Shown in pieces: positions 1 to 38,038 of a DNA stretch of 38,038 nt. Where the stretch lies: the NCBI GenBank assembly GCA_027718005.1, contig JALLOP010000002.1:1-38038 (forward strand), written 5' to 3'. Source of the DNA: Patescibacteria group bacterium AH-259-L07. GTDB taxonomy: Bacteria > Patescibacteriota > Patescibacteriia > UBA2591 > UBA6264. The translations under genes were made by a program, and so were the position numbers. The stretch's first letter is position 1. The number at the start of each line of letters is the position of its first letter. Below the pieces are notes generated by a model that saw only the letters and a program-made list of their open reading frames with translations, was not told where the DNA came from and searched no databases.

Positions 1-2
1 GC

Positions 3-737
3 GGTGCGTGCTGGAGCTGTCAGGATATTTGTAAAGAAGGGTATTTTGCTGATGTTTTAGAGTGTGAGCGTGTATGTGCTGAGCAGGGTAAGAAATGCGG
101 CGGTGATGAGTTTGGTGCGCTTGATCCAAGTGCTGCTACCGGTTTACAAGTATCGTGTTGGGCGTGCGTTGAAAAAGAGCCTGAGCCGTCTGTATGGGAT
201 ATTTTTTGGGAGATATTAGATATTGATGCAGGATGGACAAAAGTATCCACATTGCCAGCCGAGCATCGGGTGCACTTGATTGTGGCAAGTAATGGCGATC
301 CAGATATTCGTACCTTTTTGCCAATCAAGGTTGAGCTTGTTGTGGATGGAGATGTTGTGTGGCAGACCACCATTAGGGGGAGCCCTCAAGAGACATGCCG
401 TGATGCAACCGGCTGTAGTATTGATGGACCGCTTATTCAATCATCATGGCAGGGAAAGGAAGTTACGTTGAAAGCGTATAGCAAAGAGGGAAAAGTCCTT
501 GCGAGTTCACAATTTGATATAAAGGTTCCCAAAATTAAAGTTATTGAATATCAAGGAAAATATATTCCGCTCACGTCGTTACGGGTAGCAGCGCCTAATG
601 CCTGTGGAAAAGAGCATTGGCATCCAATATACGATGCAATCACCTCAACGGATAACACGATTTTATTTGATCCAAATCCTGAAGGATGCGGATTTGGTGC
701 GCTTGATACAACACCGGTGATAAGTGTCGCACCATGA
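3..737 (+). CDS. Cys-rich hypothetical protein, 5'-truncated by the window edge (host flank)
   Basis: The frame of the listed ORF 252..737 stays open back to nt 3 (GACWSCQDICKEGYF...). The listed start is only a TTG. The motif C..FGALD occurs near both ends. No family recognised. Confidence 0.55.
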   Translation, partial: GACWSCQDICKEGYFADVLECERVCAEQGKKCGGDEFGALDPSAATGLQVSCWACVEKEPEPSVWDIFWEILDIDAGWTKVSTLPAEHRVHLIVASNGDPDIRTFLPIKVELVVDGDVVWQTTIRGSPQETCRDATGCSIDGPLIQSSWQGKEVTLKAYSKEGKVLASSQFDIKVPKIKVIEYQGKYIPLTSLRVAAPNACGKEHWHPIYDAITSTDNTILFDPNPEGCGFGALDTTPVISVAP

Positions 738-755
738 TATGCGATAATTGAGTTT

Positions 756-1832
756 ATGACACTTCCCAAGGTTAAAGTTATTATTTTTGCGTTTGTGATG
801 TTTCTTATCACTGTTTTTCTGTGGTGGCAGTTATCATTGTTTTTAACCAAAGGGTTTGCTGACCTCAGCCATTTAGCATATATTGGCATTGGCTGGTTAT
901 TATTTTTAGCATTCAGTTTAGCTTTTTTACTTTTAGTTGAACAAAGAAATATAGTATTTGTAACTTTTATCTTTGGCATAGAGTCTTTTTTTCTATTTTT
1001 TGTTGGTGTTGAAAAATTAACGCTTAGTATGTATGGCATTGCAACGCTTGTTTTTTTATTACTGGTGATTATTGCGTATGAGAGAATTTTAGGAGAAAAA
1101 CAGGAGCGCTTAACTATGGTTTTAAGAAAAATTTGGAAAAGGGGTTTGCCATTTATTGTTTTAGGTTTGTCATTAATAATTGCCGTGACCTATTTTTTTA
1201 ATCCCTTGCTAAAAATTGGTCAGCAGGAAATTGAAATACCGTCTGAGATATTTCGTATATTGTTAAAGCCCGCGAGCGGATTGATTAGCGGCATTTTGCC
1301 ATTTTACGATGAAAATATGACTATTGACGAGATCTTAACCACCGGATCTATGTTAGAGGGCGGGGGAACTTCATCGCTTTCATTGGATCAAATTTCTCCA
1401 GAATTGTTGCAAAGTATTGATATAGGGAATTTAGAAGGTCTAGATATTAATGAGCTACTGAACAACCCTGAAATTGGCACGTTAGTGCGAGAGCAACTAA
1501 GCCAGAAAACACAGAAAACGTCTTCTTCAGCATTAGATCAACAGCGAAAAGCATTAGAACAATCATTAGGAATTACCATCAAAGGAAATGAAACATTTGA
1601 TATACTGATTGCTCAAGTAGTAAATGAAAAATTAAAAGAGTTTGTTGGCCCGCGCGCAAAAGAATTATCTATTGGTATTGCCGTGGCTTTATTTTTTGTA
1701 CTTCGTTTACTAGGAAAGATTTTTTCATTCCTCATTATTATATTCGCGCGCATGATTTTATCATTTCTTTTATTGCTCAATATAGCTGAGAAAAAAGAAG
1801 TGACAAAACAAGGTGAGACCATTACGATGTAG
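756..1832 (+). CDS. multi-pass membrane protein of unknown function (host flank)
   Basis: 358-aa ORF with several hydrophobic helices in the N-terminal third and at the C-terminus. Its ATG lies 19 nt after the upstream stop. Confidence 0.7.
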   Translation: MTLPKVKVIIFAFVMFLITVFLWWQLSLFLTKGFADLSHLAYIGIGWLLFLAFSLAFLLLVEQRNIVFVTFIFGIESFFLFFVGVEKLTLSMYGIATLVFLLLVIIAYERILGEKQERLTMVLRKIWKRGLPFIVLGLSLIIAVTYFFNPLLKIGQQEIEIPSEIFRILLKPASGLISGILPFYDENMTIDEILTTGSMLEGGGTSSLSLDQISPELLQSIDIGNLEGLDINELLNNPEIGTLVREQLSQKTQKTSSSALDQQRKALEQSLGITIKGNETFDILIAQVVNEKLKEFVGPRAKELSIGIAVALFFVLRLLGKIFSFLIIIFARMILSFLLLLNIAEKKEVTKQGETITM

Positions 1833-1852
1833 TATTGTATCAGCTAAGATCC

Positions 1853-1887
1853 AAAAAGGACTTATATTCACTCTATAAGTCCTTTTT
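1853..1887. terminator. bidirectional intrinsic terminator between convergent genes
   Basis: AAAAAGGACTTATA (1853..1866) and TATAAGTCCTTTTT (1874..1887) form a perfect 14-bp stem with a 7-nt loop. There is an A-run on one side and a T-run on the other. Confidence 0.6.
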
Positions 1888-1893
1888 CTTGTT

Positions 1894-3027
1894 TTACACT
1901 TCTTGGCAGAGGTAATTATCAAGCATGCTCATTCGCTCTTTATAATTTTCAGGATTAAGAAACCACATAATTGCCGCCATAGAAGAGAGCAAAGAGTTGC
2001 CATCTTGCGGGGTGAAACAAAATCCAATCAATTCTTTACCAGTGTCAGAGCCAGAGGGTTTGCGGATATGAAGTGAGGGAGCTACCACCACCGTATTATT
2101 CAGAATCCGGCCATAGTGACCATGGTCCCGACCAAACGAGAAAACCTGATGCATATTATCCTTATAGGTTAAGGCAATCTGAGGATTTGCTTGTAATTTT
2201 TTCATGATCCAATTATCATCAAAATTGTTTTGAAATTTCAGATTAAAGTGTATACTGTGCATATACTGCGTGTTGAGCTTTATCGCAGATGAAAAAATGC
2301 TGAGGTCATATCCCATAAGTGAAAAAAGGCGATGGGCATCAGTAGCATGGTGCGTGCCAAAACGTTCATCATCATGATAGGTGGTGGTGGGGGAGGCAAT
2401 AAATTTGCCGGTACGGTCGGCTTGACTAATATCACTGGCGCGACGCATACATACAAAATCTCCTTTTTCTAACGGATTGAGTGGCTGGGTGAGACTGAGC
2501 GTATGGATCAGAACAGCAAGGTTATGGGTATTACAGCTTAACACTTGAATGTATCGATCTTTATCCGGCACTAATGTTTTATCGCTCACCCCATACACAT
2601 AGGGTGTGCCAAAACCTGTTTCACTCCCTTGCGCAATAAATCCCAAGGTATTCAGCTCGAATTTTTTATAGTAGTCTTGTTTATTCTGATGGCCAAATCC
2701 TTTGGGCGTGCAGTCGATGACAATATCTGCTTCTTCAACCGCATTTTCAGTGCCGACAATGAAAGGCTGAAAGCCCAGTTTAATAAATTCTTCAGCTGCT
2801 TTTTTGTCTCTGACACAAAGCTTTCCTCCGCGTCTGATAAGCTCTCGTACTAATGGCTGGTCGCCACGCATATCTATTTTTTTACCATCTTTTTCAAACA
2901 GCGTCGGGGGAGTGAATTTGTGAAACAAGACGTTGTCTATATCCATTTTCTCTCTCAGATCACAGATAAGACTGATCAACGGTTCACCTATTGTTCCCGT
3001 GCCAATTACCAAGGTATTCTTTTTCAT
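1894..3027 (-). CDS. type II (archaeal-like) glyceraldehyde-3-phosphate dehydrogenase family protein
   Basis: N-terminal Rossmann motif VIGTGTIG. VLSCNTHNL resembles the catalytic SCNTT motif of archaeal GAPDH. RRASD and THHATD blocks follow in the order expected for that family. AGGAG lies upstream of the ATG. Confidence 0.55.
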   Translation of the reverse strand: MKKNTLVIGTGTIGEPLISLICDLREKMDIDNVLFHKFTPPTLFEKDGKKIDMRGDQPLVRELIRRGGKLCVRDKKAAEEFIKLGFQPFIVGTENAVEEADIVIDCTPKGFGHQNKQDYYKKFELNTLGFIAQGSETGFGTPYVYGVSDKTLVPDKDRYIQVLSCNTHNLAVLIHTLSLTQPLNPLEKGDFVCMRRASDISQADRTGKFIASPTTTYHDDERFGTHHATDAHRLFSLMGYDLSIFSSAIKLNTQYMHSIHFNLKFQNNFDDNWIMKKLQANPQIALTYKDNMHQVFSFGRDHGHYGRILNNTVVVAPSLHIRKPSGSDTGKELIGFCFTPQDGNSLLSSMAAIMWFLNPENYKERMSMLDNYLCQEV

Positions 3028-3118
3028 GATTTCTCCTTTTAAAGGAACATTGTATTATACAATACCCTTGCATTGTATCGCGCTCCCATTGTTTTGTCAA
3101 CAATAGTTTTTGCACAGG

Positions 3119-3147
3119 TTGACAGAAGGAGTAATTTTTGCTATTAT
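3119..3147 (+). promoter_or_regulatory. sigma70-like promoter for the 3204 gene
   Basis: TTGACA (3119..3124), a 17-nt spacer, then TATTAT (3142..3147). Confidence 0.45.
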
Positions 3148-3203
3148 AGTATTAGTTCGTTGAGAAACGAGTTGAAACCAATACATGAGATGGAGGAATA
3201 AAC

Positions 3204-3545
3204 GTGAGTAAGCAAGAAAAGATTGAGAAAATAGTGGAAATTATTAGAGAGTTTCGGTATCAGTCCTATGTTGAGCATTTGGCGGCGAATTATGCTACCA
3301 TTGACGAGAATCTACGCGAGCAGTTTATTGAGGAATACTATAAAAATGTTGAAAAAATTGAAAACGTATGGCTGGCGCGATTTTCACAGGATTTTAGTGA
3401 AATGAAGGAGCACGCACTCGATGCAATTATATCAGCTTCTTCGAGCTTCAGATTTAAGGCTCTATATCTACCGCCCATCGCAGCTTTGACATCATTGCTA
3501 ACACATACCCAGAGAGCCATTGTAAAACGTGGAAGACATAATTGA
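3204..3545 (+). CDS. hypothetical protein (host flank)
   Basis: 113-aa ORF with a GTG start 8 nt after GGAGGA. A terminator follows. Confidence 0.6.
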   Translation: MSKQEKIEKIVEIIREFRYQSYVEHLAANYATIDENLREQFIEEYYKNVEKIENVWLARFSQDFSEMKEHALDAIISASSSFRFKALYLPPIAALTSLLTHTQRAIVKRGRHN

Positions 3546-3572
3546 TGAAGTTGATAACTTCATCAATTTTTG
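3544..3572 (+). terminator. intrinsic terminator
   Basis: GATGAAGTT / AACTTCATC form a 9-bp stem with loop GAT, followed by AATTTTTG. The stem overlaps the stop codon. Confidence 0.6.
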
Positions 3573-3604
3573 TTGTCTGATATGCAGAACTCTTTACTTA
3601 CGAA

Positions 3605-3640
3605 GCAACTTTTTTCTATGTCAAGGCAACTTTTTTCTAT
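3605..3640. repeat. 15-bp perfect direct repeat x2 upstream of rpsI
   Basis: GCAACTTTTTTCTAT occurs at 3605..3619 and 3626..3640, 21 bp apart, just upstream of a TATAAT at 3665..3670. Confidence 0.7.
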
Positions 3641-3754
3641 TGCTAAAAAATATAGATCTGTTAGTATAATGAGTAATGTCTATTTGTCATTCCGACCCTT
3701 TATCTTTGACTAAAGGTGAAGGGGAGGAATCTCATAATAAATTATTGCATATTT

Positions 3755-4411
3755 ATGCCAACTAAGAAATCAACAACGAAAAAAACAACAAAAGAGCCGG
3801 CAAAAAAGCCGGTAGCCAAGCGAGCGACCAAGAAGCCGGTAAAAGAGACTACCAAACCGGCGGCAAAGAAAACAGTAAAGAAGGTTGCAACAAAGAAATC
3901 TGTTGAAAAAGCTCCTGTTGAAAAAGCTCCTGCTAAAAAATTAGCAACCAAGCCAAGCATTCACCCTGTTAAATCCGACAAAGTCGGTGTGAAACAATTT
4001 AACAGGGTAAAAAAAGTTGAGAAGGAGGAAATCTGGGCGACGGGAAAGCGAAAATCTTCTATTGCACGCGTGCAGTTTTTTAGTTCTGGGAAAGGAGAAA
4101 TTTCTATTAATAAGAGGAGTATAAAAGATTATTTTCCTGTATTTGAGCTGCAAAAGTCGGTGACATCACCGCTTGTTTTATTAAAACAAGATAAAAAATT
4201 TACCTTTAGAATAAGGGTTCATGGCGGCGGCATACGAGGTCAGGCAGAGGCAGCACGGTTGGGCATCGCGCGTGCTTTATCAGAGCTTAACCCAGAATGG
4301 CGAAAGCCGCTTAAAAAGGCAGGCTTTTTAAAGCGCGACCCGCGAAAAAAAGAACGAAAAAAACCAGGCCTCAAACGCGCCCGCCGCGCCCCGCAGTGGG
4401 CGAAGAGGTAA
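3755..4411 (+). CDS. rpsI: 30S ribosomal protein S9 with a Lys/Ala/Pro-rich N-terminal extension of about 100 aa
   Basis: The C-terminal 125 aa carry the S9 signature (GKRKSSIARV...GGGIRGQAEAARLGIARAL...PRKKERKK). ATG at 3755; the listed GTG at 3716 is an alternative start. Confidence 0.9.
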   Translation: MPTKKSTTKKTTKEPAKKPVAKRATKKPVKETTKPAAKKTVKKVATKKSVEKAPVEKAPAKKLATKPSIHPVKSDKVGVKQFNRVKKVEKEEIWATGKRKSSIARVQFFSSGKGEISINKRSIKDYFPVFELQKSVTSPLVLLKQDKKFTFRIRVHGGGIRGQAEAARLGIARALSELNPEWRKPLKKAGFLKRDPRKKERKKPGLKRARRAPQWAKR

Positions 4412-4412
4412 A
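4394..4412. repeat. attL core: 19-bp direct repeat covering the rpsI stop codon
   Basis: CAGTGGGCGAAGAGGTAAA is identical to 37841..37859. Confidence 0.75.
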
Positions 4413-4447
4413 CTGTGTAAAACTTAAAAGTCCCAAAAATTAAAAGG

Positions 4448-4461
4448 AACTGTGGATAACT
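4448..4461 (+). promoter_or_regulatory. single copy of the AACTGTGGATAACT motif, which contains an exact DnaA-box 9-mer
   Basis: This 14-mer also occurs twice in the tandem array at 35940..35963. TGTGGATAA is the reverse complement of TTATCCACA. It is also part of the palindrome TGTGGA-TAAC-TCCACA. Confidence 0.5.
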
Positions 4462-4466
4462 CCACA

Positions 4467-4499
4467 GCCCGACCATATGTTGGTCGGGCTTTTTGTTTT
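4467..4499 (+). terminator. intrinsic terminator supplied by the phage arm downstream of rpsI
   Basis: GCCCGACC / GGTCGGGC form an 8-bp stem with a 7-nt loop, followed by TTTTTGTTTT. Confidence 0.7.
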
Positions 4500-4516
4500 G
4501 GATAAATCGTTCTTAT

Positions 4517-4549
4517 GTAAGTTACAAAATTTCAATCGTAAGTTACAAA
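4517..4549. repeat. 12-bp direct repeat x2, each with an internal palindrome (operator or arm-site candidate)
   Basis: GTAAGTTACAAA occurs at 4517..4528 and 4538..4549, 21 bp apart. Each copy contains GTAA-G-TTAC. Confidence 0.5.
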
Positions 4550-4702
4550 CTATGGAGATTAAAACGAATACATTAAATGTGAAAGCATTTCGTGAGAGAC
4601 ACGACAAAGTAAAATTTGGCGTTGCCTTTTCTCTTTATGGAGCAAAGAGGCGGCGCCTTTTTGGTATCAAGTATTTTTATTACGGACTTAAAGGGAAAAA
4701 AT

Positions 4703-5023
4703 ATGCGAGGAATTATCACTAAAATTGATCAGTTGAAAAAGAGTTTTAACAACGATGATACTTGTTTTTATCGCCTCTACTTTAAGTTAGAGAGTGGGAG
4801 TTGGGCTAAGACTGATGCTGTGCCGGGCTTCAGAAACTTTGCGAGGTGGAAGCCGGTGATTGAAGGCGGTCCGGGCACAGCACTTAATGATTTGGTTTTG
4901 CTTGATGAGAATACGGTTGATGCTGATTGCTATCCGGAGATTATCACTGAGCCAAAACAAATCGAATTATTTGATTATGAACAAATATCAAAAACAAAAC
5001 ATACAGCTTTATCAGAGGCATAA
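4703..5023 (+). CDS. phage hypothetical protein
   Basis: In-frame ATG at 4703 inside listed ORF 4616..5023, preceded by AAAGGGA. Confidence 0.6.
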   Translation: MRGIITKIDQLKKSFNNDDTCFYRLYFKLESGSWAKTDAVPGFRNFARWKPVIEGGPGTALNDLVLLDENTVDADCYPEIITEPKQIELFDYEQISKTKHTALSEA

Positions 5024-5195
5024 GGAAGATATACAAAAAGGCTGGTGGGGATGGCATGGGTTGTTTGACCGGTTTCAATGCGTGAAGTGCGGAGAAACAC
5101 TGACGGGATCAGAATTTGTTACCGGCTATATCAAGAAAGGGGGCGAGGAGGCATGTAAAAAAATTCATTGTTATAACTGTTATAAAAGTTCTTAA
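4977..5195 (+). CDS. small zinc-ribbon protein
   Basis: In-frame ATG at 4977 inside listed ORF 4860..5195. Carries CVKC...CYNC cysteine pairs. Confidence 0.5.
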   Translation: MNKYQKQNIQLYQRHKEDIQKGWWGWHGLFDRFQCVKCGETLTGSEFVTGYIKKGGEEACKKIHCYNCYKSS

Positions 5196-5246
5196 AAAAG
5201 GTCGAACCAGCGCAACCTGGTTAAACTATTAAAATTGATTTTATTA

Positions 5247-6143
5247 ATGAGATTTATGGCACAAAAGAAAAAAGAAAAAAAACTAACACAGAAAGAACAG
5301 GAGGAAAAGACAGCTGTGGTGGTTCAGCCGATTCAGTCTCAGGTAGTTAAGTTTGGGCAATATGAGCCAGAAAAATTAGTAGAACGTGCAACAAAGATGG
5401 CCAATGCCCTTGCTCCCATTATTGATAAACAAAAGCTCTATATCCAGATTGGCAATAAAAAGTATGTTATGGCCGAAGGTTGGACTACAATGCTGGCGAT
5501 GTTGGGTGTATTTCCAGAGGTAGAATGGACTAAAAAAATAGAAAGAGGTGAAGAGATTGTATATGAGGCGCGCGTGATTCTTAAGACAATGAATGGCGAT
5601 ATTGTGAGTGCGGCTGAGTCTATGTGCTCATCTAAAGAGAAAAACTGGCAGGGCAGAGATGAATTTGCTATCCGTTCAATGGCTCAAACAAGAGCAACAG
5701 GCAAGGCCGCGCGTCTACCGTTCGCGTGGATAATGGCTTTGGGTGGTTATGCAGGAACCCCGGCAGAAGAGATGAATACTGATACGACAAAACCGCCATT
5801 CAAGGGAAACGAATTTAGCAGTAAGAAAAAATGGAGTAAAAAAAGCAAGCCAGTTACAGCCAAATCAGCTACAGCAATGATCAGCAAAGAACAGATAGAA
5901 ATTATCCATGAATTAGCCAAAGAAGGAGGAGCTAAAAGTTGGGCTGACGTGGTAATGTTGTCAGCTGGAATTTTAGAAAAACTTGTAACTGATATGAAAG
6001 AATTAACCTATGAGGATGCGGTTATAGTTATTAAAAGATTAACTGCAGAAGAAAAGCAAAATAAAAAACCAAGAACAAAAAAGGGAAAGATCGAAAAACT
6101 TATTGATGACGGAGAAATCGGCGATGACGAAATACCGAAATAA
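5247..6143 (+). CDS. phage early protein, possibly a DNA-binding or recombination protein (function not established)
   Basis: About 298 aa. ATGs at 5247 and 5256; the listed start is a TTG. Conserved-looking core (KKYVMAEGW..MLAMLG...MAQTRATGKAARL) with a Lys-rich linker. I cannot assign a family by eye. Confidence 0.6.
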   Translation: MRFMAQKKKEKKLTQKEQEEKTAVVVQPIQSQVVKFGQYEPEKLVERATKMANALAPIIDKQKLYIQIGNKKYVMAEGWTTMLAMLGVFPEVEWTKKIERGEEIVYEARVILKTMNGDIVSAAESMCSSKEKNWQGRDEFAIRSMAQTRATGKAARLPFAWIMALGGYAGTPAEEMNTDTTKPPFKGNEFSSKKKWSKKSKPVTAKSATAMISKEQIEIIHELAKEGGAKSWADVVMLSAGILEKLVTDMKELTYEDAVIVIKRLTAEEKQNKKPRTKKGKIEKLIDDGEIGDDEIPK

Positions 6144-6259
6144 TTGGCCATTGATCCTCGCTCTAACCAGATTTATGGTGCATATCTCAATGGCGTATGC
6201 TAATAGATTGTATCGGTTGGAGCGAGAACTGAACGGCTAATAAAAAGGAGGGACAAACA

Positions 6260-6355
6260 ATGAGCTATCCTGGCGCCATTACGACCAAGATAAACCCATT
6301 ATCGTCCCTTTGTAATTATAACAAAAAAAATGAAAGATACCAATATAAAAAATGA
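6260..6355 (+). CDS. 31-aa micro-ORF with the strongest Shine-Dalgarno sequence seen in the early region
   Basis: AGGAGG (6246..6251) lies 8 nt before ATG 6260. The ORF overlaps the start of the 6330 gene in another frame and is below the ORF-track cutoff. Confidence 0.3.
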   Translation: MSYPGAITTKINPLSSLCNYNKKNERYQYKK

Positions 6356-7082
6356 GGCCTGGAAATATGTAGTTATTACTGATAGCACAACCGATCAGCG
6401 ATTACTAAAAAAGGGAAGGATAGGTGTTTATGCTTATACTCTTTACCATTTTTACGCTACTCAATCAGCGATTCAACAGACCAATAAAGTCTGGATTACT
6501 GATAGTTTTTGTCGGAAAGGACTTCACTGGGGGCGGAACAAGTTTGAGCAAGCCAAAAAGATACTTATAAAAGAAAAAATTATTGAAGAAATACAAAGAA
6601 AAGACGAAAAGGGACATTTTACTAAAAAATATATTATCATTCATTTTCTCTATAATCCCGACCGTTTGACTCCAAACCCACAGGCGGTGAAACCCGCAAG
6701 CGGAAAAGAAACGACAAATGCTTTAGATAAAAAGACAAATGCTTTAGATAAAAAGATAAATGCTTCTAAAGAGAAAATAATAAATTACACCTTAAAAGAT
6801 AGAGAATTAACTGATTTATTATATTCTCTTGTCCAGAAAAATTATTCGTGGGTTAAACAAAAGACCGAAAAGGCATTAGAAAAAAATTGTGAAGAAATGA
6901 ACCGCCTTAACAGGATAGACGGCTGGGATTATAAGCAGATTGAATTTGTTATTAGATGGTCGCAAAAAGATGATTTTTGGCGTCAGAATATCAGGTCGGT
7001 CTCAAAACTTCGCAAACAGTTTGAAAATTTAATTATCAGAATCAAAGAAAAATCTAATAAAAATAAAATAGCGATTATATGA
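6330..7082 (+). CDS. putative replication organiser or DNA-binding protein
   Basis: The N-terminus looks like a winged helix. The C-terminus has FWRQNIRSVSKLRKQF. The gene contains 21-bp tandem repeats. Functional call is weak. Confidence 0.5.
   Translation: MKDTNIKNEAWKYVVITDSTTDQRLLKKGRIGVYAYTLYHFYATQSAIQQTNKVWITDSFCRKGLHWGRNKFEQAKKILIKEKIIEEIQRKDEKGHFTKKYIIIHFLYNPDRLTPNPQAVKPASGKETTNALDKKTNALDKKINASKEKIINYTLKDRELTDLLYSLVQKNYSWVKQKTEKALEKNCEEMNRLNRIDGWDYKQIEFVIRWSQKDDFWRQNIRSVSKLRKQFENLIIRIKEKSNKNKIAII
6714..6771. repeat. 21-bp tandem repeat, about 2.5 copies (iteron-like)
   Basis: ACAAATGCTTTAGATAAAAAG occurs at 6714..6734 and 6735..6755, followed by a partial degenerate copy. The repeats encode TNALDKK repeats. 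Confidence 0.8.
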
Positions 7083-7441
7083 TCAAAGTTAAATATAGCG
7101 AACAAGATATTTTTGAGTTAACAGAACAGGAGTTTAAAAAAGCATTATCAGAATGGAATAAAGGCAGGTCGGTTTTTGTCCGTCGTCTCGGAGCGTCTTT
7201 GTCGCCGTATTATCGTTGGGCCGGGGTTGAACCAGTTAATCCTAATGCAGGATACACGCGCGATGGCCGCAAAATGTTTCGTAAATTTGGGGAGTGGCGG
7301 TTTGTTGAATGTCCGGAACTAAAACCTGATCTGACTTATTATCCCGAAATCGCCAAAGATGAATTATTAACTGAGCAAGAATTTAAAAATAGATATTTAT
7401 TAAAAAAAGCTGATGAAAAATTGGAAAAGAAAAAAAATTAA
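7079..7441 (+). CDS. phage hypothetical protein
   Basis: 120-aa ORF whose ATG overlaps the upstream stop (ATGA). Confidence 0.7.
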   Translation: MIKVKYSEQDIFELTEQEFKKALSEWNKGRSVFVRRLGASLSPYYRWAGVEPVNPNAGYTRDGRKMFRKFGEWRFVECPELKPDLTYYPEIAKDELLTEQEFKNRYLLKKADEKLEKKKN

Positions 7442-7533
7442 AAAGCCAATTTGGGAACAACCTGCTTGCTATTTTTGTGGCTATCAAGGCAGACATAGAA
7501 AGGATTGTAAAATAAAAATTAGAAAAAAAATAT

Positions 7534-7752
7534 ATGCTAACCGACCAAGAAATAAAAATCGGCAAACTAAAACAAGACGTCATTGATCTGGCGCTTGATT
7601 TAGAAGTTACAAGAATTGAAAAACAGGCAATGGACATTACCTGTGAAAAACAAGGAGATTATGTGCGTTTATTATCACTTGAAACCGCATTACACAACAT
7701 ACAAAGGGGGTTAAATGAAATGGTCGCAGGAGGGATAAGAGAATATAATTAA
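7534..7752 (+). CDS. phage hypothetical protein
   Basis: 72-aa ORF. It competes with an unlisted 57-aa ORF at 7413..7586. Confidence 0.5.
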   Translation: MLTDQEIKIGKLKQDVIDLALDLEVTRIEKQAMDITCEKQGDYVRLLSLETALHNIQRGLNEMVAGGIREYN

Positions 7753-7774
7753 GATTTTAACTAATTTAGAACTT

Positions 7775-7972
7775 ATGGATAATTTAGACAAATTACAAGA
7801 CGAAATAGGAGGATTAAGCGCTGAAGTTGAAAGATTATTAAAACTTTTAGAAGAGAAAGATGAGGAAATTCAAAGATTGAATGAAAGGTTAGATAAGATA
7901 GATAACCTTGCTCATAGATTAGATAAAGTAGATGACATTACCTACGATATTAGAGAAGTAATTAAAAGATAG
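7775..7972 (+). CDS. small coiled-coil protein
   Basis: 65-aa ORF with a heptad-like charged sequence. Confidence 0.6.
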   Translation: MDNLDKLQDEIGGLSAEVERLLKLLEEKDEEIQRLNERLDKIDNLAHRLDKVDDITYDIREVIKR

Positions 7973-8086
7973 CCCCAACGCAACAAGTGCCTTTTGTAAA
8001 AACCTGAATAGTTCCCTGTGCAGTAACTGGACAAGTAAGGTCTTAAGGTTCAATGAGAATTCCAGCTTGTTCAACTGGGGGAATAA

Positions 8087-8157
8087 CGCGGGGTGGAGTA
8101 GTGGCAACTCGGTGGTTTCATACGCCACAGACACGGGTTCAATTCCCGTCCCTGCTA
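8087..8157 (+). tRNA. tRNA-Met, anticodon CAT, with initiator-like features
   Basis: Cloverleaf built by hand:
- Acceptor CGCGGGG / CCCTGCT.
- U8.
- D arm GAGT-AGTGGCA-ACTC.
- Anticodon arm GTGGT-TTCATAC-GCCAC.
- T arm ACGGG-TTCAATT-CCCGT.
- Discriminator A.
- No encoded CCA. Confidence 0.8.
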
Positions 8158-8160
8158 TAT

Positions 8161-8308
8161 GGGCGAGTGGCGGAATAGGTAATCGCTATGGTGAGGATAT
8201 TCTACAAAGGTATAAACATAAGAAACCTTTGGGTTGAAAAACATAAGCTAGTGGAGTAATTAACCACAAAAAAGAGTCCTTGTCAGGTGCAAATCCTGAC
8301 CTCGCCCT
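8161..8308 (+). ncRNA. tRNA-like element with an internal insertion of about 70-95 nt (aberrant, intron-containing or degenerate tRNA)
   Basis: - It starts 3 nt after the tRNA-Met.
- Perfect 7-bp acceptor pairing GGGCGAG (8161..8167) / CTCGCCC (8301..8307).
- Canonical U8 and D arm GCGG-AATAGGTAA-TCGC.
- T-like arm GTCAGG-TGCAAAT-CCTGAC.
- No canonical anticodon arm could be drawn. Confidence 0.4.
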
Positions 8309-8325
8309 AAACCAAGATATAAATT

Positions 8326-8757
8326 ATGAAAATATCTAACGAAGAAAAATCATATTTAGCTGGTTACATAGACGCCGATGGCAGTCTTGGAATTTATAAA
8401 AGTAATCATGGTTATTATAGTGTCATAGTTACAGCTTCAAGCACTGATTTAAGAGTTCTAAACCGTTTAAAATTTTTATATAAAGGTTCTGTAAGATGTG
8501 TAAGACACGGAAAAGAAAATTGGAAAGATGAATATAGATGGGTTATCGCCACAAAACAATCTGTAAAATTCTTAAATGATATTTATTCTTATTTGATATT
8601 AAAAAAAGATAGAGCAAAAGTTTTATTAGATTTTCAATCAACTATGAAAAGTGGTCAGTATCTTACTCCCGAAATTATAAAAATACGAGAAAAGTTATTG
8701 AGAAAAATAGCTACCCTTAACAAAAAAGGTGTTTCGCCCACTAAAAAACTAATTTAG
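8326..8757 (+). CDS. LAGLIDADG homing endonuclease (single-motif type)
   Basis: YLAGYIDADGSLGI motif near the N-terminus; 143 aa. Confidence 0.85.
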   Translation: MKISNEEKSYLAGYIDADGSLGIYKSNHGYYSVIVTASSTDLRVLNRLKFLYKGSVRCVRHGKENWKDEYRWVIATKQSVKFLNDIYSYLILKKDRAKVLLDFQSTMKSGQYLTPEIIKIREKLLRKIATLNKKGVSPTKKLI

Positions 8758-10053: not shown

Positions 10054-10393
10054 ACGAATTTTAAAAATTTTAGGCACGGCAATTTTGCCTGAAATGTTAA
10101 AGATAGACCACGACTATACGATCGGTTTAACTATCAATATAACCGACATTAACAAAAAAAGTCGACAAGACGGTTCGTATAATTTTATACACAAAGGTAA
10201 AATGTTGGGCGAGCTTTTGGTTCAGAAAGATTTTGGCAAGAAGATATTTGCTCCAACAAAAGGCAGTAGCTCAAAGAAATGGCGCGATCAGTTATGGGCG
10301 TTGAGTGAGGACTACGAAGATTATATGAGAGTGCAACGAGCTAATGGAGAGGAGTTTATTGCGCTTTATAAGAAATTGAGAGATGAGAAATAG
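10034..10393 (+). CDS. phage hypothetical protein
   Basis: ATG at 10034, inside the listed GTG-start ORF 10028..10393. Confidence 0.65.
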   Translation: MDQKINERILKILGTAILPEMLKIDHDYTIGLTINITDINKKSRQDGSYNFIHKGKMLGELLVQKDFGKKIFAPTKGSSSKKWRDQLWALSEDYEDYMRVQRANGEEFIALYKKLRDEK

Positions 10394-10718
10394 AGGAATG
10401 AAAAATCCATTCAGCGAGGAAACACGTATTTTGTTTATCGGCAATTTCCGATGCTTTAATTGTAGCCATAGCAATCAGGGACTGGAGCTTCACCATATCT
10501 TCAAAAGAGTATCGGCAAGTCCGTATAACGCGACGCCCATCTGCCGTGAATGTCACGAATTGGGAGATCTTCATTCAGACAAAAGGCGCTTAAATTTAAT
10601 TCAAAAAACAACTGAGTGGCTTGTTACTGAACATAATTATCAGCCGTCTGCTGAGGATAGGGAGTTTATGAAAAAATATTATAGACCATTATATGAAAAT
10701 TCATCAAATCAAAATTAA
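10383..10718 (+). CDS. small HNH-motif protein
   Basis: CFNC...LELHHI...NATPICRECH matches the HNH beta-beta-alpha metal-finger pattern. It lies upstream of the methylase and terminase genes. Confidence 0.6.
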   Translation: MRNRGMKNPFSEETRILFIGNFRCFNCSHSNQGLELHHIFKRVSASPYNATPICRECHELGDLHSDKRRLNLIQKTTEWLVTEHNYQPSAEDREFMKKYYRPLYENSSNQN

Positions 10719-19639: not shown

Positions 19640-20110
19640 CTAATCTATTGAATCATATCTTATATGACACGCTTTACATAATCTAATCCAATCCTTTAGG
19701 TCCCTTAAATACTCATGGCTTTTGTTTGCCCAGTGAATTTTCCTGCCTGTTAATCCATCTGTTTTACAATGTTCACATTTGGTAGGTCTTCCTAATTTAT
19801 TATTTATCCAATGATGTAAAGCAGAATAACCAACATTATCACCTTTCCATAAAGGATGATTTTCATCTGTTTTAGATATACTTAACTTTATTTTATGATT
19901 TTCTGAAAATTCCATTCCTATATGAGATTCACTCATTTTATTTCTGGATTTTTCAGAATGTTTATATCCTAAATGACCTTTATCTCCTTTCTTAAATAAT
20001 GTTGATTTATCGCTACATTCTTTTGAGCAGAATTTACCTTTTCCAATTCTAATTCTACACGGATAAGTTTGAAAATCTTTATTACATTGTAAACATTTTA
20101 GAGTAATCAT
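19640..20110 (-). CDS. HNH homing endonuclease (family B) with a zinc finger and a NUMOD3-like motif
   Basis: CLQCN...KGKFCSKEC; SEKSRNKMSESHIG; C-terminal LWKGDNVGYSALHHW...CEHC...IHWANKSHEYLRDLKDWIRLCKACHIRYD. Opposite strand to its neighbours. Confidence 0.85.
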   Translation of the reverse strand: MITLKCLQCNKDFQTYPCRIRIGKGKFCSKECSDKSTLFKKGDKGHLGYKHSEKSRNKMSESHIGMEFSENHKIKLSISKTDENHPLWKGDNVGYSALHHWINNKLGRPTKCEHCKTDGLTGRKIHWANKSHEYLRDLKDWIRLCKACHIRYDSID

Positions 20111-23000: not shown

Positions 23001-23336
23001 ATGGATAAAAAAAGCATAGCCGCCGCCTTGTTGTTAGGCGCAGTTACTATTGGCGCTATAAATCTTAATATAAATATTGATTCTAAAAAGTTTTGGGAGA
23101 AAGCGATAAGAGGAGAGCTTTATACTACCTCTTTTAATCAGGAACAGTATAAGATTCTGAAGACAGACCTCATTGATCAAGTAAATCAAAAAAAGACTAT
23201 GACTTATCAGAGTTATAGTCTTTATTTACAAATGTTAAATAGAGAGATTAAGAAAAGCAGGGGATGGACAATCGGAAATGTGGATAATAAAAATTTGATT
23301 CCTAAGCTTAACTCTGAACTTGAGAAATCTCTGTAA
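23001..23336 (+). CDS. small protein with an N-terminal signal sequence or membrane anchor
   Basis: 111 aa with N-terminal SIAAALLLGAVTIGAI. Confidence 0.6.
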   Translation: MDKKSIAAALLLGAVTIGAINLNINIDSKKFWEKAIRGELYTTSFNQEQYKILKTDLIDQVNQKKTMTYQSYSLYLQMLNREIKKSRGWTIGNVDNKNLIPKLNSELEKSL

Positions 23337-23769
23337 GATTACTGACTAATTGGGGACTATTCTTTAAATTTTCATAATTCATATGTTCTGCTTGTGTATC
23401 AAATAAATATAAATTTTCAGGTAAGTTATTTTTCCTATCGCTATCAATATGATGTATTACTTCTTTAGATTCAAGAAATCTACCCAGCATACATTCAGTA
23501 GAATAACGATGTTCGTAAATATAATTATTTATAGCAGAGGGATGTTCAGGCATATTGAGTAAAATATATCCATTGCCAGTTTTTTTTCTTCCGCCTTTCC
23601 AGCTTGGATTATCTTCTCCAAATTTACGAACTCCATACATAGAATTTTTTTCTCCTTTTAATGATTCGCTTATCTTTCTTTTAGTTTCTTCAGAATGTTT
23701 AAAACCAGTTTTCGATTCACTCATCTTCTTTTTGGACTCTTCTGAATGTTTAAAACCTTTTTTGGGCAT
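23308..23769 (-). CDS. HNH homing endonuclease (family A) with NUMOD3-like motifs
   Basis: GFKHSEESKKKMSESKTGFKHSEETKRKISESLKG; C-terminal EHRYSTECMLGRFLESKEVIHHID..NNLPENLYLF. Opposite strand to its neighbours. Confidence 0.85.
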   Translation of the reverse strand: MPKKGFKHSEESKKKMSESKTGFKHSEETKRKISESLKGEKNSMYGVRKFGEDNPSWKGGRKKTGNGYILLNMPEHPSAINNYIYEHRYSTECMLGRFLESKEVIHHIDSDRKNNLPENLYLFDTQAEHMNYENLKNSPQLVSNLTEISQVQS

Positions 23770-35396: not shown

Positions 35397-35861
35397 ATGA
35401 TAAAAGGAAGTAAACATTCAGAAGAAATCAAAAGAAAAATAAGCAATTCTCTTAAAGGAAATAAAAACCCTTTTTGGGGCAAACATCATACAGAGGAATC
35501 TAAGATAAAGATGAGCAAAGCGCATACAGGAAAAAAATTATCTGAAGAGCATAGAATAAATATGAGCAAAGCCCTTAAGGGCAGAAAAAAATCAGAAGAA
35601 CATAAGAGAAATATAAGCAAAGCACAATTAGGAGAAAAAAATCATTTATGGAAAGGAGATAAGGTAGGTTATCGCGCTCTCCATAGATGGGTTGAAAAAT
35701 GGAAGGGTAAACCAACTCAATGTGAACATTGTAAAGAAGATGGATTAATTGATAAACAAATAAATTGGGCAAACAAATCAGGAAACTATTTAAGGGACTT
35801 AAGAGATTGGATTAGATTATGTGTTAAATGTCATAGAGAATATGACAAAGGATCAATATAA
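35397..35861 (+). CDS. HNH homing endonuclease (family B) with NUMOD3-like repeats
   Basis: SEEIKRKISNSLKG, TEESKIKMSKAHTG, SEEHRINMSKALKG and SEEHKRNISKAQLG motifs. C-terminal LWKGDKVGYRALHRW...CEHC...INWANKSGNYLRDLRDWIRLCVKCHREYD. Confidence 0.85.
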   Translation: MIKGSKHSEEIKRKISNSLKGNKNPFWGKHHTEESKIKMSKAHTGKKLSEEHRINMSKALKGRKKSEEHKRNISKAQLGEKNHLWKGDKVGYRALHRWVEKWKGKPTQCEHCKEDGLIDKQINWANKSGNYLRDLRDWIRLCVKCHREYDKGSI

Positions 35862-35933
35862 GGAAAGAGTCAAGAATGGTTGGGGTTTATAATTAGGAAT
35901 TGATTTGCTATTGAAAGGTCATTGAATTGATCC

Positions 35934-35963
35934 GTGGATAACTGTGGATAACTGTGGATAACT
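35934..35963 (+). repeat. three tandem 10-bp repeats, GTGGATAACT, containing DnaA-box 9-mers
   Basis: CGTGGATAA at 35933..35941, and TGTGGATAA at 35943..35951 and 35953..35961. Spacing is exactly 10 bp. A T-run and AT-rich DNA follow. Confidence 0.85.
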
Positions 35964-35976
35964 TTTTTTGATATTG

Positions 35977-36024
35977 TGATATAATAAAATACGCTATTGA
36001 CAAATTTTCAAGATTTTGTATAAT
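35977..36024 (+). promoter_or_regulatory. tandem promoters: an extended -10 and a near-consensus -35/-10
   Basis: TGATATAAT at 35977..35985. TTGACA (35997..36002), a 16-nt spacer, then TATAAT (36019..36024). Confidence 0.55.
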
Positions 36025-36030
36025 AGTATT

Positions 36031-36135
36031 ATATATGACTCACCATCAGCAAACAACAACAAGTAATATACTTTTATTAAAAAATAAAAGAACCCGCTAC
36101 AATTATATTACATTGTAGGGATTCTTTTGTTTTTT
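36031..36135 (+). ncRNA. short promoter-to-terminator transcript (sRNA or 27-codon micro-ORF)
   Basis: The predicted +1 (about 36031) is 4 nt before ATG 36035. The only ORF, MTHHQQTTTSNILLLKNKRTRYNYITL, runs into the terminator hairpin. Confidence 0.35.
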
Positions 36136-36276
36136 AATTTAATGGACCCTTGGGGGGTCAAACCCCTCGCGCGCTAACACAGATGGTTATAAATCATCTT
36201 TCACCTGATCGGGTGAGCCAGGGCCCTTATGTAGGGTCCCTTAAAACAATCAAACAATCATTTTTAAGGGTCCATT
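36080..36276 (-). ncRNA. candidate structured non-coding RNA of about 200 nt (family unknown)
   Basis: - A consensus promoter lies immediately upstream on the minus strand.
- An 18-bp perfect inverted repeat (36134..36151 / 36266..36283) encloses four GC-rich hairpins and a tandem 8-mer.
- The RNA ends at the bidirectional terminator. Confidence 0.5.
36090..36135. terminator. bidirectional intrinsic terminator shared by convergent short transcripts
   Basis: The stem pairs CTACAAT with ATTGTAG and extends through GAACCC / GGGATTC. TTTTGTTTTTT follows on the + strand and TTTTATTTTTT on the - strand. Confidence 0.6.
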
Positions 36277-36282
36277 AAATTA

Positions 36283-36311
36283 ATTATAATATTCCAGAAA
36301 ATTTATGTCAA
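36283..36311 (-). promoter_or_regulatory. perfect consensus sigma70 promoter on the minus strand
   Basis: On the minus strand: TTGACA (36311..36306), a 17-nt spacer, then TATAAT (36288..36283). The predicted +1 is near 36276. Confidence 0.6.
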
Positions 36312-36419
36312 GGTCTGAAAGGCAATAAATTTTACACATTTTATCAACATTCTAATATGTCATTTTATTCTTGTCATTCCTGACAAGTTTTTTATTTTAT
36401 AGGAGTGGACAAATAGGGG

Positions 36420-36447
36420 TTGACAAAATTATTATATCTGTTACTAT
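36420..36447 (+). promoter_or_regulatory. promoter for the small HTH gene, overlapped by a GTTAC-N7-GTAAC inverted repeat
   Basis: TTGACA (36420..36425), a 16-nt spacer, then TACTAT (36442..36447). GTTAC at 36440..36444 and GTAAC at 36452..36456. Confidence 0.45.
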
Positions 36448-36489
36448 TTATGTAACACCATTATTCTAATATTCTATTTTGTTACATTT

Positions 36490-36672
36490 ATGAAACGGGT
36501 ATTAAAAATTGTTAAACAATACCGCAAAATAGGGGATTCTCTTTTAGAAGCATATATAAAAGACCGGGCAGAGGAGGGGCACTCTCTTGCTGATATTAAA
36601 GAGGAGTTGAAAAAAGCAAAGATCGATTTTTCACGAACCCATATTTGGAGGTTTGTTAATAAAAAGAAATAA
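36490..36672 (+). CDS. small HTH protein (excisionase or regulator candidate)
   Basis: 60 aa, basic, with an HTH-like HSLADIKEELKKAKIDFSRTHIWRFV. It lies directly upstream of the integrase. Confidence 0.55.
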   Translation: MKRVLKIVKQYRKIGDSLLEAYIKDRAEEGHSLADIKEELKKAKIDFSRTHIWRFVNKKK

Positions 36673-36678
36673 AAAAGC

Positions 36679-36715
36679 ACCCGCATTTTCAGCGGGTCTG
36701 GGAGGAAAGTCCCAG
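36679..36715 (+). terminator. two adjacent hairpins after the HTH gene (weak terminator candidate)
   Basis: ACCCGC / GCGGGT at 36679..36697 and CTGGGA / TCCCAG at 36698..36715. There is no clear T-run on the + strand. Confidence 0.3.
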
Positions 36716-36805
36716 CATTTCAGTTTGCAAAAGCTCTTGCTACTGAATTGGCTCAATATAATTATAGCACGCCTTAAATAAGTGTAAAGGCGTTGGAAAG
36801 GTGCT

Positions 36806-37684
36806 ATGCGAATTGAGGATAAATTTTTAGATTATCTGAGTTATCTCAGGAGGACTGGGTTAACTGAGAAAACAGTAACCGAACATCGGCGATTTTTATT
36901 TGGCTCAATTTCTCATTCAGTCTCAAGGACTAAAATTAAAAAATTAAAACTAACCGATATCGCTAAAACTATCGAGGCAGGAAAGGTGCACGGGGAATAC
37001 GGCAGTCAACGATCGGTTGTTACTTTACGGCGTTATTTAAAGTATTTACAAGACACCGGCGTTAGGATCCCCTTTGACTGGCGCGATATCAAGGTGCCGC
37101 AAGTCCCGGAGAAAGAAAAAATTTCTTTAACAAAAGAGGAGCTGGAAAAGATTTTTAAAAATATAATGACATCATCGGCCAAACCCCAATGTCGTCTCCG
37201 TATGCGCACCTTGTTTGAGGTGTTGTTTTCTACGGGGATGAGAATATCAGAGGCACTTTCCTTGACAAGGGAACAGTTTAAGGAAATAAAAAAAACTAAG
37301 GAAACAATTATCAGGGGCAAGGGTGGCGATGAGCGTATAGTTTATTTTACTGATCGGGCAATCGAGTGGATTGAAAGAAATTTAAAAGCGAGAAATGATG
37401 ACTGTCCGGCGCTTTTTATTAATACACTCGGCAGGCCCCTAATAATGGTAACGGCAAAAAGCGACTTGCTTCGTCACCGGGACGAGTGGGGCATACCAAA
37501 GCGCGTGCATTTTCATATTGTTAGACGGACGCTGGCAACACTCTTGATAGAAGGCGGGGCGGATATGAAGTCAACACAAACTATTCTTGGACATCGATCT
37601 CCTCGCACAACATTAAGATATTATGTAACGGTAAATCGCAAAAGAGCGAAGCAAGTTCATCAGAGAATATTGGCAACAATTTGA
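36806..37684 (+). CDS. int: tyrosine recombinase / phage integrase (Xer-like, 292 aa)
   Basis: TGMRISEAL (catalytic Arg box), HFHIVRRTLATLL and LGHRSPRTTLRYY give the R..H..R..H..Y catalytic pattern. The gene lies 157 bp from attR. Confidence 0.9.
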   Translation: MRIEDKFLDYLSYLRRTGLTEKTVTEHRRFLFGSISHSVSRTKIKKLKLTDIAKTIEAGKVHGEYGSQRSVVTLRRYLKYLQDTGVRIPFDWRDIKVPQVPEKEKISLTKEELEKIFKNIMTSSAKPQCRLRMRTLFEVLFSTGMRISEALSLTREQFKEIKKTKETIIRGKGGDERIVYFTDRAIEWIERNLKARNDDCPALFINTLGRPLIMVTAKSDLLRHRDEWGIPKRVHFHIVRRTLATLLIEGGADMKSTQTILGHRSPRTTLRYYVTVNRKRAKQVHQRILATI

Positions 37685-37705
37685 GTTGCTTGATCGATTA
37701 AAGTA

Positions 37706-37714
37706 TGGTATAAT
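37706..37714 (+). promoter_or_regulatory. outward-facing extended -10 promoter at the prophage right end
   Basis: TGGTATAAT (TGnTATAAT) lies just after the integrase stop and points across attR into host DNA. Confidence 0.4.
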
Positions 37715-37840
37715 ATAGATAGTTAATAATTATTGCGGAGGATTCTGGAATTTTAAAAATAGTAAAACCTTAAAATTTGGCTTATTTAGGTTCAAATTAA
37801 GCATATGGTCGGTTTTGGGACTCTCACAAGTTTAGCTCCT

Positions 37841-37859
37841 CAGTGGGCGAAGAGGTAAA
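37841..37859. repeat. attR core: 19-bp direct repeat
   Basis: CAGTGGGCGAAGAGGTAAA is identical to 4394..4412. Confidence 0.75.
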
Positions 37860-37865
37860 ATAAAG

Positions 37866-37890
37866 TGCCCACTACGATGTGTAGTGGGCA
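37866..37890 (+). terminator. hairpin downstream of attR (probable native rpsI 3' stem-loop)
   Basis: TGCCCACTAC / GTAGTGGGCA form a 10-bp stem with loop GATGT. No T-run follows. Confidence 0.4.
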
Positions 37891-38038
37891 AATAGGGTTG
37901 GGGCAGCAGACCACTTGAGCAAGGTGGGTCCTCCATTTACATATTTAAACATAAACTTGAAATAAAGGCTTGTCTTAAAGTTTGGATATAAATATTATTC
38001 ACTTCCAACTATAAACATTTCTTAAAAAACCGCTAAGT

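Follow-up and report, generated by a model that had tools for sequence, protein, structure and literature searches.

A possible small-RNA gene opposing a DnaA-box-linked early promoter next to the integrase gene of a prophage

The 38,038-bp contig JALLOP010000002.1 carries a prophage, and the subject of this study is a predicted small-RNA gene in a non-coding gap close to the integrase gene of this prophage. The whole contig was analysed and is referred to as the window. Positions 1-8,000 are host-like and include ribosomal protein S9, and phage genes span from ~8.3 kb to 37.7 kb. Together with a tyrosine integrase gene at 36806-37684, these phage genes make the designation as an integrase-proximal prophage region, given in an initial annotation of this DNA, a fair one. 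Concerning the host, the integrase homologues are metagenomic and one of them is labelled Candidatus Taylorbacteria, which is why the host, an AT-rich bacterium, probably belongs to the Candidate Phyla Radiation. The gap measures 628 bp (35862-36489) and extends from an HNH/NUMOD3 gene ending at 35861 to an open reading frame (ORF) of 60 amino acids starting at 36490. Its size and coordinates, as well as the lack of a credible protein gene within it, agree with the initial annotation. It contains DnaA boxes, promoters of both strands that face each other, a terminator-like hairpin between them and an inverted-repeat element of 150 bp.

Two promoter signals are found on the plus strand of the gap. 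P+a is an extended -10 element, read directly from the sequence as TGATATAAT at 35977-35985, and P+b is a TTGACA-N16-TATAAT promoter at 35997-36024. Facing them on the minus strand is P-, TTGACA-N17-TATAAT at 36311-36283, which reads into the inverted-repeat element. All three had been proposed before and lie where they were placed, and P+b and P- each agree with the sigma-70 consensus at 12 of 12 positions. Promoters of this quality are rare: the 38-kb window has three, where base composition would predict 0.07. The third stands directly upstream of a minus-strand HNH gene (19640-20110), and a scan of the window located further sites with 11 of 12 matches that also precede minus-strand genes. 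Consensus promoters are probably used in this genome. Given this rarity, and because the third perfect promoter precedes a real minus-strand gene, P+b and P- are unlikely to be accidental.

Between the facing promoters lies a bidirectional hairpin (36076-36138, both strands) resembling an intrinsic terminator, with 20-nt arms that are 90% complementary and an inner 7-bp stem. T-runs flank it on both strands. A simple terminator scan omits this hairpin because its stem is interrupted and AU-rich. The predicted plus-strand transcript of ~105 nt (36031-36135), whose start was placed from the promoter position, is CA-rich and unstructured in its 5' half, after which comes the terminator hairpin; the fold of the 105-nt RNA has an energy of -21.3 kcal/mol (z -4.7). 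On the minus strand, a non-coding RNA of ~195 nt is predicted between positions 36276 and 36080. The two predicted RNAs overlap by ~55 nt, in agreement with the shared terminator and the extent of overlap proposed earlier.

The minus-strand RNA is predicted to be highly structured. Taken as 197 nt from 36276 to 36080, it reaches a minimum free energy of -74.5 kcal/mol (z -7.5), in a fold in which a stem of 11 bp closes a five-way junction, with a linker and the terminator after it. No ORF of at least 25 amino acids is present on the minus strand of the element. A 42-amino-acid ORF on the plus strand of its core was considered as a small protein and rejected, as it matched solely cadherin-like repeat proteins through summed weak hits that are spurious. 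If the element were removed, P- would read directly into the terminator, and therefore the element is the sole thing that P- can express. The unit has the attributes of a stand-alone small-RNA gene, namely its own promoter, an intrinsic terminator, a stable fold and no coding frame. Since promoter, structured body and terminator occur together without a credible ORF, the anatomy supports the earlier view of the locus as two small non-coding transcription units that converge. From these signals we infer that the RNA is produced, where it starts and ends, and what its role might be.

The plus-strand transcript carries a 27-codon ORF (36035-36118), which is polar as previously described. Its presence bears on the alternative of a type I toxin-antitoxin of the par/Fst kind, in which the plus RNA would encode a 27-amino-acid toxin and the minus RNA would be the antitoxin pairing via the shared terminator. 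In pAD1 par (fst) of Enterococcus faecalis, two convergent small RNAs with complementary 3' ends use a common bidirectional intrinsic terminator, and 3'-overlapping type I toxin-antitoxins of Gram-positive prophages such as txpA/RatA and bsrG/SR4 are often prophage-borne (PMC8167048). The locus shares with pAD1 par the convergent small RNAs (here predicted), the shared bidirectional terminator and the complementary 3' ends, and it lies in a prophage. However, the peptide MTHHQQTTTSNILLLKNKRTRYNYITL is polar and basic and contains no transmembrane stretch, its longest hydrophobic run being ILLL, and because of this polar peptide the toxin-antitoxin reading fails. Moreover, its start codon lies 11 nt from the -10 element and lacks a ribosome-binding site. 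There is no significant 5' complementarity of the DRa/DRb type either: the best duplex between the body of the P- RNA and the 5' half of the P+ RNA has -14.9 kcal/mol, a value equalled by 253 of 500 shuffles. Unlike pAD1 par, the locus thus comes without a hydrophobic toxin peptide and without significant 5' direct repeats, and its 'antitoxin' would be a large five-way-junction RNA as compared to the ~65-nt hairpin RNA of par. What remains of the toxin-antitoxin proposal of the initial annotation is the par-like layout, and we regard this explanation as very improbable.

The element read by P- is bounded by an 18-bp perfect inverted repeat, confirmed as first described, with its left arm (TTAATTTAATGGACCCTT) at 36134-36151 and its right arm at 36266-36283 on both strands. 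A gap of 114 bp separates the arms. Such repeats are rare: ~390 kb of related phage DNA contains only four that are perfect over 13 bp or more and have a gap of 40-300 bp. The start of P- is expected ~7 nt past its -10 element, so that the inner 10-11 nt alone of the right arm lie downstream of the start and in the RNA. The 114-bp core (36152-36265, both strands) contains four GC-rich hairpins, a GCGCGC junction and a tandem AACAATCA x2. The predicted folds contain the four hairpins of the core and the tandem UGAUUGUU x2 that the initial annotation had reported. A third copy of the motif AGGGTCC(C/A)TTAAA lies inside the core at 36233-36245 and permits alternative pairing; the motif is present three times in both orientations, and its third copy could give alternative RNA helices or a third protein site. 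The region 36130-36290 folds with z-scores of -6.5 on the minus and -7.1 on the plus strand as compared to shuffles. G-U pairs are uninformative on the strand, four favouring plus and three favouring minus. The sequence features listed in the initial annotation are real and far beyond chance.

Known families and further copies of the element were searched for at several levels. An Rfam 15 scan of the whole window at the gathering threshold gave nothing besides a tRNA-Met at 8087-8157. In a permissive Rfam scan of 35800-36850 the best match had E = 0.17, far below threshold, and no known family was found, including C4 antisense RNA, ribozymes, int-alpA, HEARO and Y RNA-like. A search for DNA similarity to GenBank phages yielded no match. 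Scans with the repeat arms used exact patterns, by which diverged arms would be missed. They gave no match in IMG/VR, one chance match in 185,579 GTDB genomes, located in an intergenic region of a high-GC Limnocylindrales, and two unrelated, eukaryotic-looking repeats in JGI metagenomes. Three exact scans of IMG/VR with core segments resulted in two without a match and one with a chance match within a coding region. The element has one copy within the window. Near-identical copies, which the initial annotation had named as the mark of a mobile element, were thus not seen in the window or, by the exact-arm scans, in IMG/VR, the GTDB genomes and the JGI metagenomes. Related phages were examined in 73 loci carrying integrase or lysin homologues, 16 of them contigs obtained by protein look-up and 57 IMG/VR loci obtained by profile. 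BLAST and a single-sequence covariance model detected no copy of the element in these 73 loci. By these searches the putative RNA is an orphan.

The plus-strand promoter, in contrast to this orphan block, has counterparts in related phages. Three tandem DnaA boxes (CGTGGATAA, TGTGGATAA and TGTGGATAA) with 10-bp phasing are located at 35933-35961, just upstream of the plus-strand promoters. The lysin-like gene of the prophage is at most 61% identical to that of any relative, and this value is reached by the nearest relative, L009. The equivalent gap of L009 contains two perfect DnaA boxes (4473-4533) and an alignable promoter. Hereby the counterpart of P+a is near-identical (GTGTGATATAATAA), and P+b aligns with the L009 early promoter TTTACA-N16-TATAAT, which directly drives a 59-amino-acid early gene of the helix-turn-helix type. 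Since promoter and DnaA boxes recur alignably in L009, we take the plus-strand promoter to be a conserved early promoter. The L009 promoter runs directly into early genes, and for this reason the block of terminator, inverted-repeat element and P- appears to be a phage-specific addition between the early promoter and the 60-amino-acid and integrase genes. In 60 related loci (359 kb), 19 perfect DnaA boxes were seen against 4.2 expected, a 4.5-fold enrichment, and most of them lie just downstream of the lysis gene. Besides L009 (4473-4533), boxes at this post-lysis junction, shortly before the early promoter, occur in L041 (4063/4155), L050 (4282) and further loci. Their position suggests that early transcription or a phage origin depends on DnaA.

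From what is directly seen, namely the sequence signals, the predicted fold, the lack of a coding frame and an early promoter/DnaA-box module kept in a relative, we tentatively favour a reading of the locus as an orphan, self-contained small-RNA gene opposing a conserved DnaA-box-linked early promoter. According to this proposal, P- (36311-36283) would start transcription near 36276, and the resulting RNA is modelled to fold into a compact five-way junction closed by the 11-bp stem. It would end at the hairpin 36124-36090 with a total length of ~195 nt, and the same hairpin would also terminate the opposing ~105-nt transcript from the early promoter(s) at 35977-36024. The unit might thereby serve as a cis-acting brake and insulator against head-on transcription, composed of strong convergent transcription from P-, the shared terminator and ~55 nt of complementary 3' ends. 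The combined effect would be less read-through from the early promoter into the 60-amino-acid gene and the integrase gene, and the folded RNA body would mainly stabilise the RNA.

Several observations weigh against this proposal. The core alone, without its closing stem, barely beats shuffles on the minus strand (z -2.0), and its plus-strand fold is the stronger one (z -3.4). The hairpins have tiny loops of 3-5 nt, which carry no recognisable tertiary motifs. A homologue of the RNA was found neither in Rfam, IMG/VR, the GTDB genomes and the JGI metagenomes nor in the 73 related loci. Finally, another 7 bp of perfect inverted repeat lie outside the predicted RNA start and reach up to the -10 element, an extension that has a probability of ~0.3^7 by chance. 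Pairing in the P- transcript cannot explain these 7 bp, and therefore they point to an origin or function at the level of DNA. Candidates for such a role, judged from the sequence, are terminal repeats like those of a miniature inverted-repeat transposable element (MITE), recombination sites of an invertible segment and protein-binding sites. Taken together, explanations at the DNA level are possible but doubtful.

One of them is a MITE-like or palindromic mobile insertion between P- and the terminator, with terminal inverted repeats of 14-15 bp and a palindromic TA/TTAA target duplication, which would be transcribed through its location alone. A perfect 18-bp terminal inverted repeat, a length of 150 bp and the absence of an ORF are in line with such an insertion, and so are the GC-rich core, which is unlike its AT-rich surroundings, and the absence of the element at the equivalent position of L009. 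The repeat ends in TTAA and TA and runs past the RNA start, as ends at the DNA level would; these palindromic ends may represent a target duplication or plainly a part of the repeat. Bacterial MITEs include Correia elements, RUP and ERIC, and the element resembles these in its length of ~150 bp, its perfect terminal inverted repeats without an ORF, a stable RNA fold if transcribed, and TA/TTAA ends compatible with target duplication. Unlike them, however, it is single-copy in every collection searched, the window included, and the exact-arm scans of IMG/VR, the GTDB genomes and the JGI metagenomes gave unrelated chance matches alone. Furthermore, a dedicated promoter and terminator frame the element precisely, and P- would express nothing without it. 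We consider a mobile insertion unlikely.

The perfect arms might also reflect inversion. The nearby tyrosine recombinase could invert the 114-bp core between its 18-bp repeats, so that the fixed P- makes either of two different RNAs. Here perfect inverted repeats flank a short segment, the promoter abuts one of the repeats, a tyrosine recombinase gene is present 520 bp away, and recombination within the repeats would keep the arms perfect past the RNA start. This recombinase, however, is the phage integrase by synteny, and phage contigs without any such repeat have a homologue of it in the same place. The segment itself contains no promoter, and a terminator that depends on orientation is not evident, which leaves inversion with a very small probability.

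A phage replication origin, or another DNA site bound by a protein, is a third candidate. The DnaA cluster and a stretch of ~85% AT would then form the origin, the hairpins and the three AGGGTCC(C/A)TTAAA motifs would be initiator or repressor sites or a single-strand initiation signal, and the flanking promoters would have an activating role. Three phased DnaA boxes, the enrichment of such boxes at the junction in related phages, the threefold motif in both orientations and the perfection of the repeat past the RNA start all agree with an origin. It also fits that the scanned ORFs of the prophage gave no recognisable replication protein. On the other hand, a DNA site has no need of a promoter and a terminator that frame precisely this element, L009 as a relative with DnaA boxes lacks the element, and no candidate binding protein was found. 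An origin or similar site is therefore an improbable explanation of the element.

The initial annotation had proposed a different role of the RNA, that of an immunity or lysogeny factor which replaces a protein repressor. RNA immunity factors are known as CI RNA in phage P4 and as c4 RNA in P1/P7, the latter being represented in Rfam. Both arise by processing from the operon under their control, in which they act via short complementary sites. The locus resembles them as a small structured RNA encoded by a phage and proposed for lysogeny control. A strong RNA gene adjoining the integrase gene would suit this role, and so would a 5' arm that could leave the UGAUUGUU repeats exposed or hidden, depending on which of its alternative pairings forms. 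No domain of the CI/Cro/XRE type was found above threshold in ~30 ORFs scanned, in line with the earlier statement that no such repressor is recognisable; yet most ORFs are unannotated, and the absence of a repressor from the prophage is not assertable. Moreover, an operator-like palindrome is found at the promoter of the 60-amino-acid ORF. Complementary target sites, the testable defining feature of RNA immunity factors, are absent from the window. The longest match of the RNA to the window, direct or inverted, is 11 nt as compared to a shuffle median of 11-12, a duplex scan with the seed region was without an outlier, the best duplexes lying in coding regions or being not significant, and neighbouring leaders pair no better than shuffles. 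In contrast to CI and c4, the RNA would be transcribed on the opposite strand from a promoter of its own, and it matches neither C4 nor any other Rfam family. Because of the missing target, a CI/c4-like role is unsupported, and we assign it a low probability.

The favoured small-RNA gene can also be compared with switches based on opposing transcription. Phages P2 and 186 use face-to-face lytic and lysogenic promoters with transcriptional interference, and lambda OOP and P22 sar are phage antisense RNAs. Strong convergent promoters next to the integrase gene of a temperate phage are features in common with these systems, as are the collision and antisense pairing proposed here. Unlike in P2 and 186, a terminator stands between the promoters, one arm encodes a folded RNA and no protein, and flanking repressor genes are absent. 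In its most far-reaching form, the locus would constitute a new class of RNA-only lysis-lysogeny switch, in which the five-way-junction RNA is set against a DnaA-controlled early promoter and a second antisense RNA acts before the integrase gene, without a protein repressor. That such a switch exists here is quite improbable.

Related phages show other structures at comparable positions. L049 carries, at 1368-1520, a perfect inverted repeat of 24 bp around a core of 56 nt (fold z-score -10.6), followed immediately by a strong terminator and then by a near-consensus DnaA box and the early promoter. It occupies the same late/early junction and is non-homologous to the element of the window, which hints that long stem structures may be recurrent at this junction. 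In L010 (5714-6059) and L012 (5214-5548), ~340 bp of GC-rich, partly conserved non-coding DNA lie between the lysin homologue and a gene for a small basic protein. No Rfam match was obtained for either region, and they may represent another structured RNA at the same junction. In L074, near-consensus promoters face each other (+3845, -3927) with start sites ~13 nt apart. This pair is immediately upstream of an integrase homologue (55% identity), and a terminator-like leader hairpin follows. Because such face-to-face promoters precede a related integrase gene, convergent small units near int may be a recurring theme.

Towards the integrase gene, a terminator-like hairpin of the plus strand only (36370-36387) lies between the element and the 60-amino-acid gene. 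The promoter of this gene (36420-36457, plus strand; TTGACA-N16-TACTAT with TG) is overlapped by the operator-like palindrome GTTAC-N7-GTAAC at 36441-36457, and a degenerate second copy of the palindrome is found at the start codon of the ORF (36470-36496). This arrangement suggests that the 60-amino-acid protein or another protein regulates the promoter. The ORF itself (36490-36672, plus strand) matches no family, and no homologue of it was found. It is followed by a second mini-unit on the minus strand (36670-36788), with a promoter at 36788-36761 (11 of 12 positions, with TG) and a terminator at 36697-36679 functioning, by its layout, on the minus strand only. Its folded RNA of ~85 nt (z -3.75) would be antisense to the gap between the 60-amino-acid gene and int, which makes it a candidate antisense regulator of int. 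With this second promoter-to-terminator unit at 36788-36670, the claim that the P- RNA is the only divergent unit near int does not stand. Its presence on the same strand as P- also speaks for the small-RNA gene.

The tyrosine integrase gene (36806-37684, plus strand) belongs to Pfam PF00589 (E = 1.7e-30), and its homologues are at most 64% identical. A reading of the locus as attP, the phage attachment site, was rejected, as the long non-coding gap follows int in this integrase family (L001-L003, L073, L074). Likewise, a retron non-coding RNA was dismissed, since the neighbours (HNH/NUMOD3, the 60-amino-acid orphan and the integrase) contain no reverse transcriptase domain. Downstream of int, at 37686-37935 of the window, a promoter-like TTGCTT-N17-TATAAT precedes a GC-rich patch in which GTGGGC and GCCCAC can pair in three mutually exclusive ways and which also has a 10-bp hairpin. 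A permissive Rfam scan of 37600-38038 gave no relevant match, and the overall fold of the patch is not significant (z -0.9). The region 37686-37935 could be attR, host flank or the leader of a gene past the contig end. Attachment-site repeats between the tRNA region and the end of int were searched for and none was found.

The remaining prophage encodes homing endonucleases, a ParB-methylase, the large terminase, a portal protein and a tail protein of 1341 amino acids, and a lysin-like gene of 314 amino acids followed by the HNH/NUMOD3 gene that borders the gap. A group I intron was rejected there, as the upstream 314-amino-acid gene is full length compared with its homologues and Rfam gave no intron match. 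Genes for free-standing homing endonucleases are unusually dense for a prophage of ~30 kb: one is of the LAGLIDADG type (8326-8757) and four are of the HNH/NUMOD3 type (10383-10718, 19640-20110, 23308-23769 and 35397-35861). Two of these five genes are on the minus strand, each preceded by a near-consensus promoter of its own. At the other end of the prophage, a tRNA-like sequence (8160-8312) directly follows the tRNA-Met. It has a 7-bp acceptor stem GGGCGAG/CTCGCCC, a 5' part resembling a D-arm, the T-arm CAGGTGCAAATCCTG and an insertion of ~75 nt in the middle. ARAGORN makes no call on this sequence, which has the LAGLIDADG ORF downstream of it and may be an intron-containing or disrupted tRNA.

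We know of no work on the regulation of temperate phages of Candidate Phyla Radiation bacteria. The locus described here is single and unconserved, and its role in lysogeny is a guess. If the RNA is real, it would add a new structured RNA family, and if it acts on read-through into int, it would provide a first handle on temperate phage regulation in the Candidate Phyla Radiation. DnaA boxes are also found with the early promoter in related phages, and this recurring link may be the more general lead. It would tie early transcription or replication of these phages to the replication-initiation state of their hosts.

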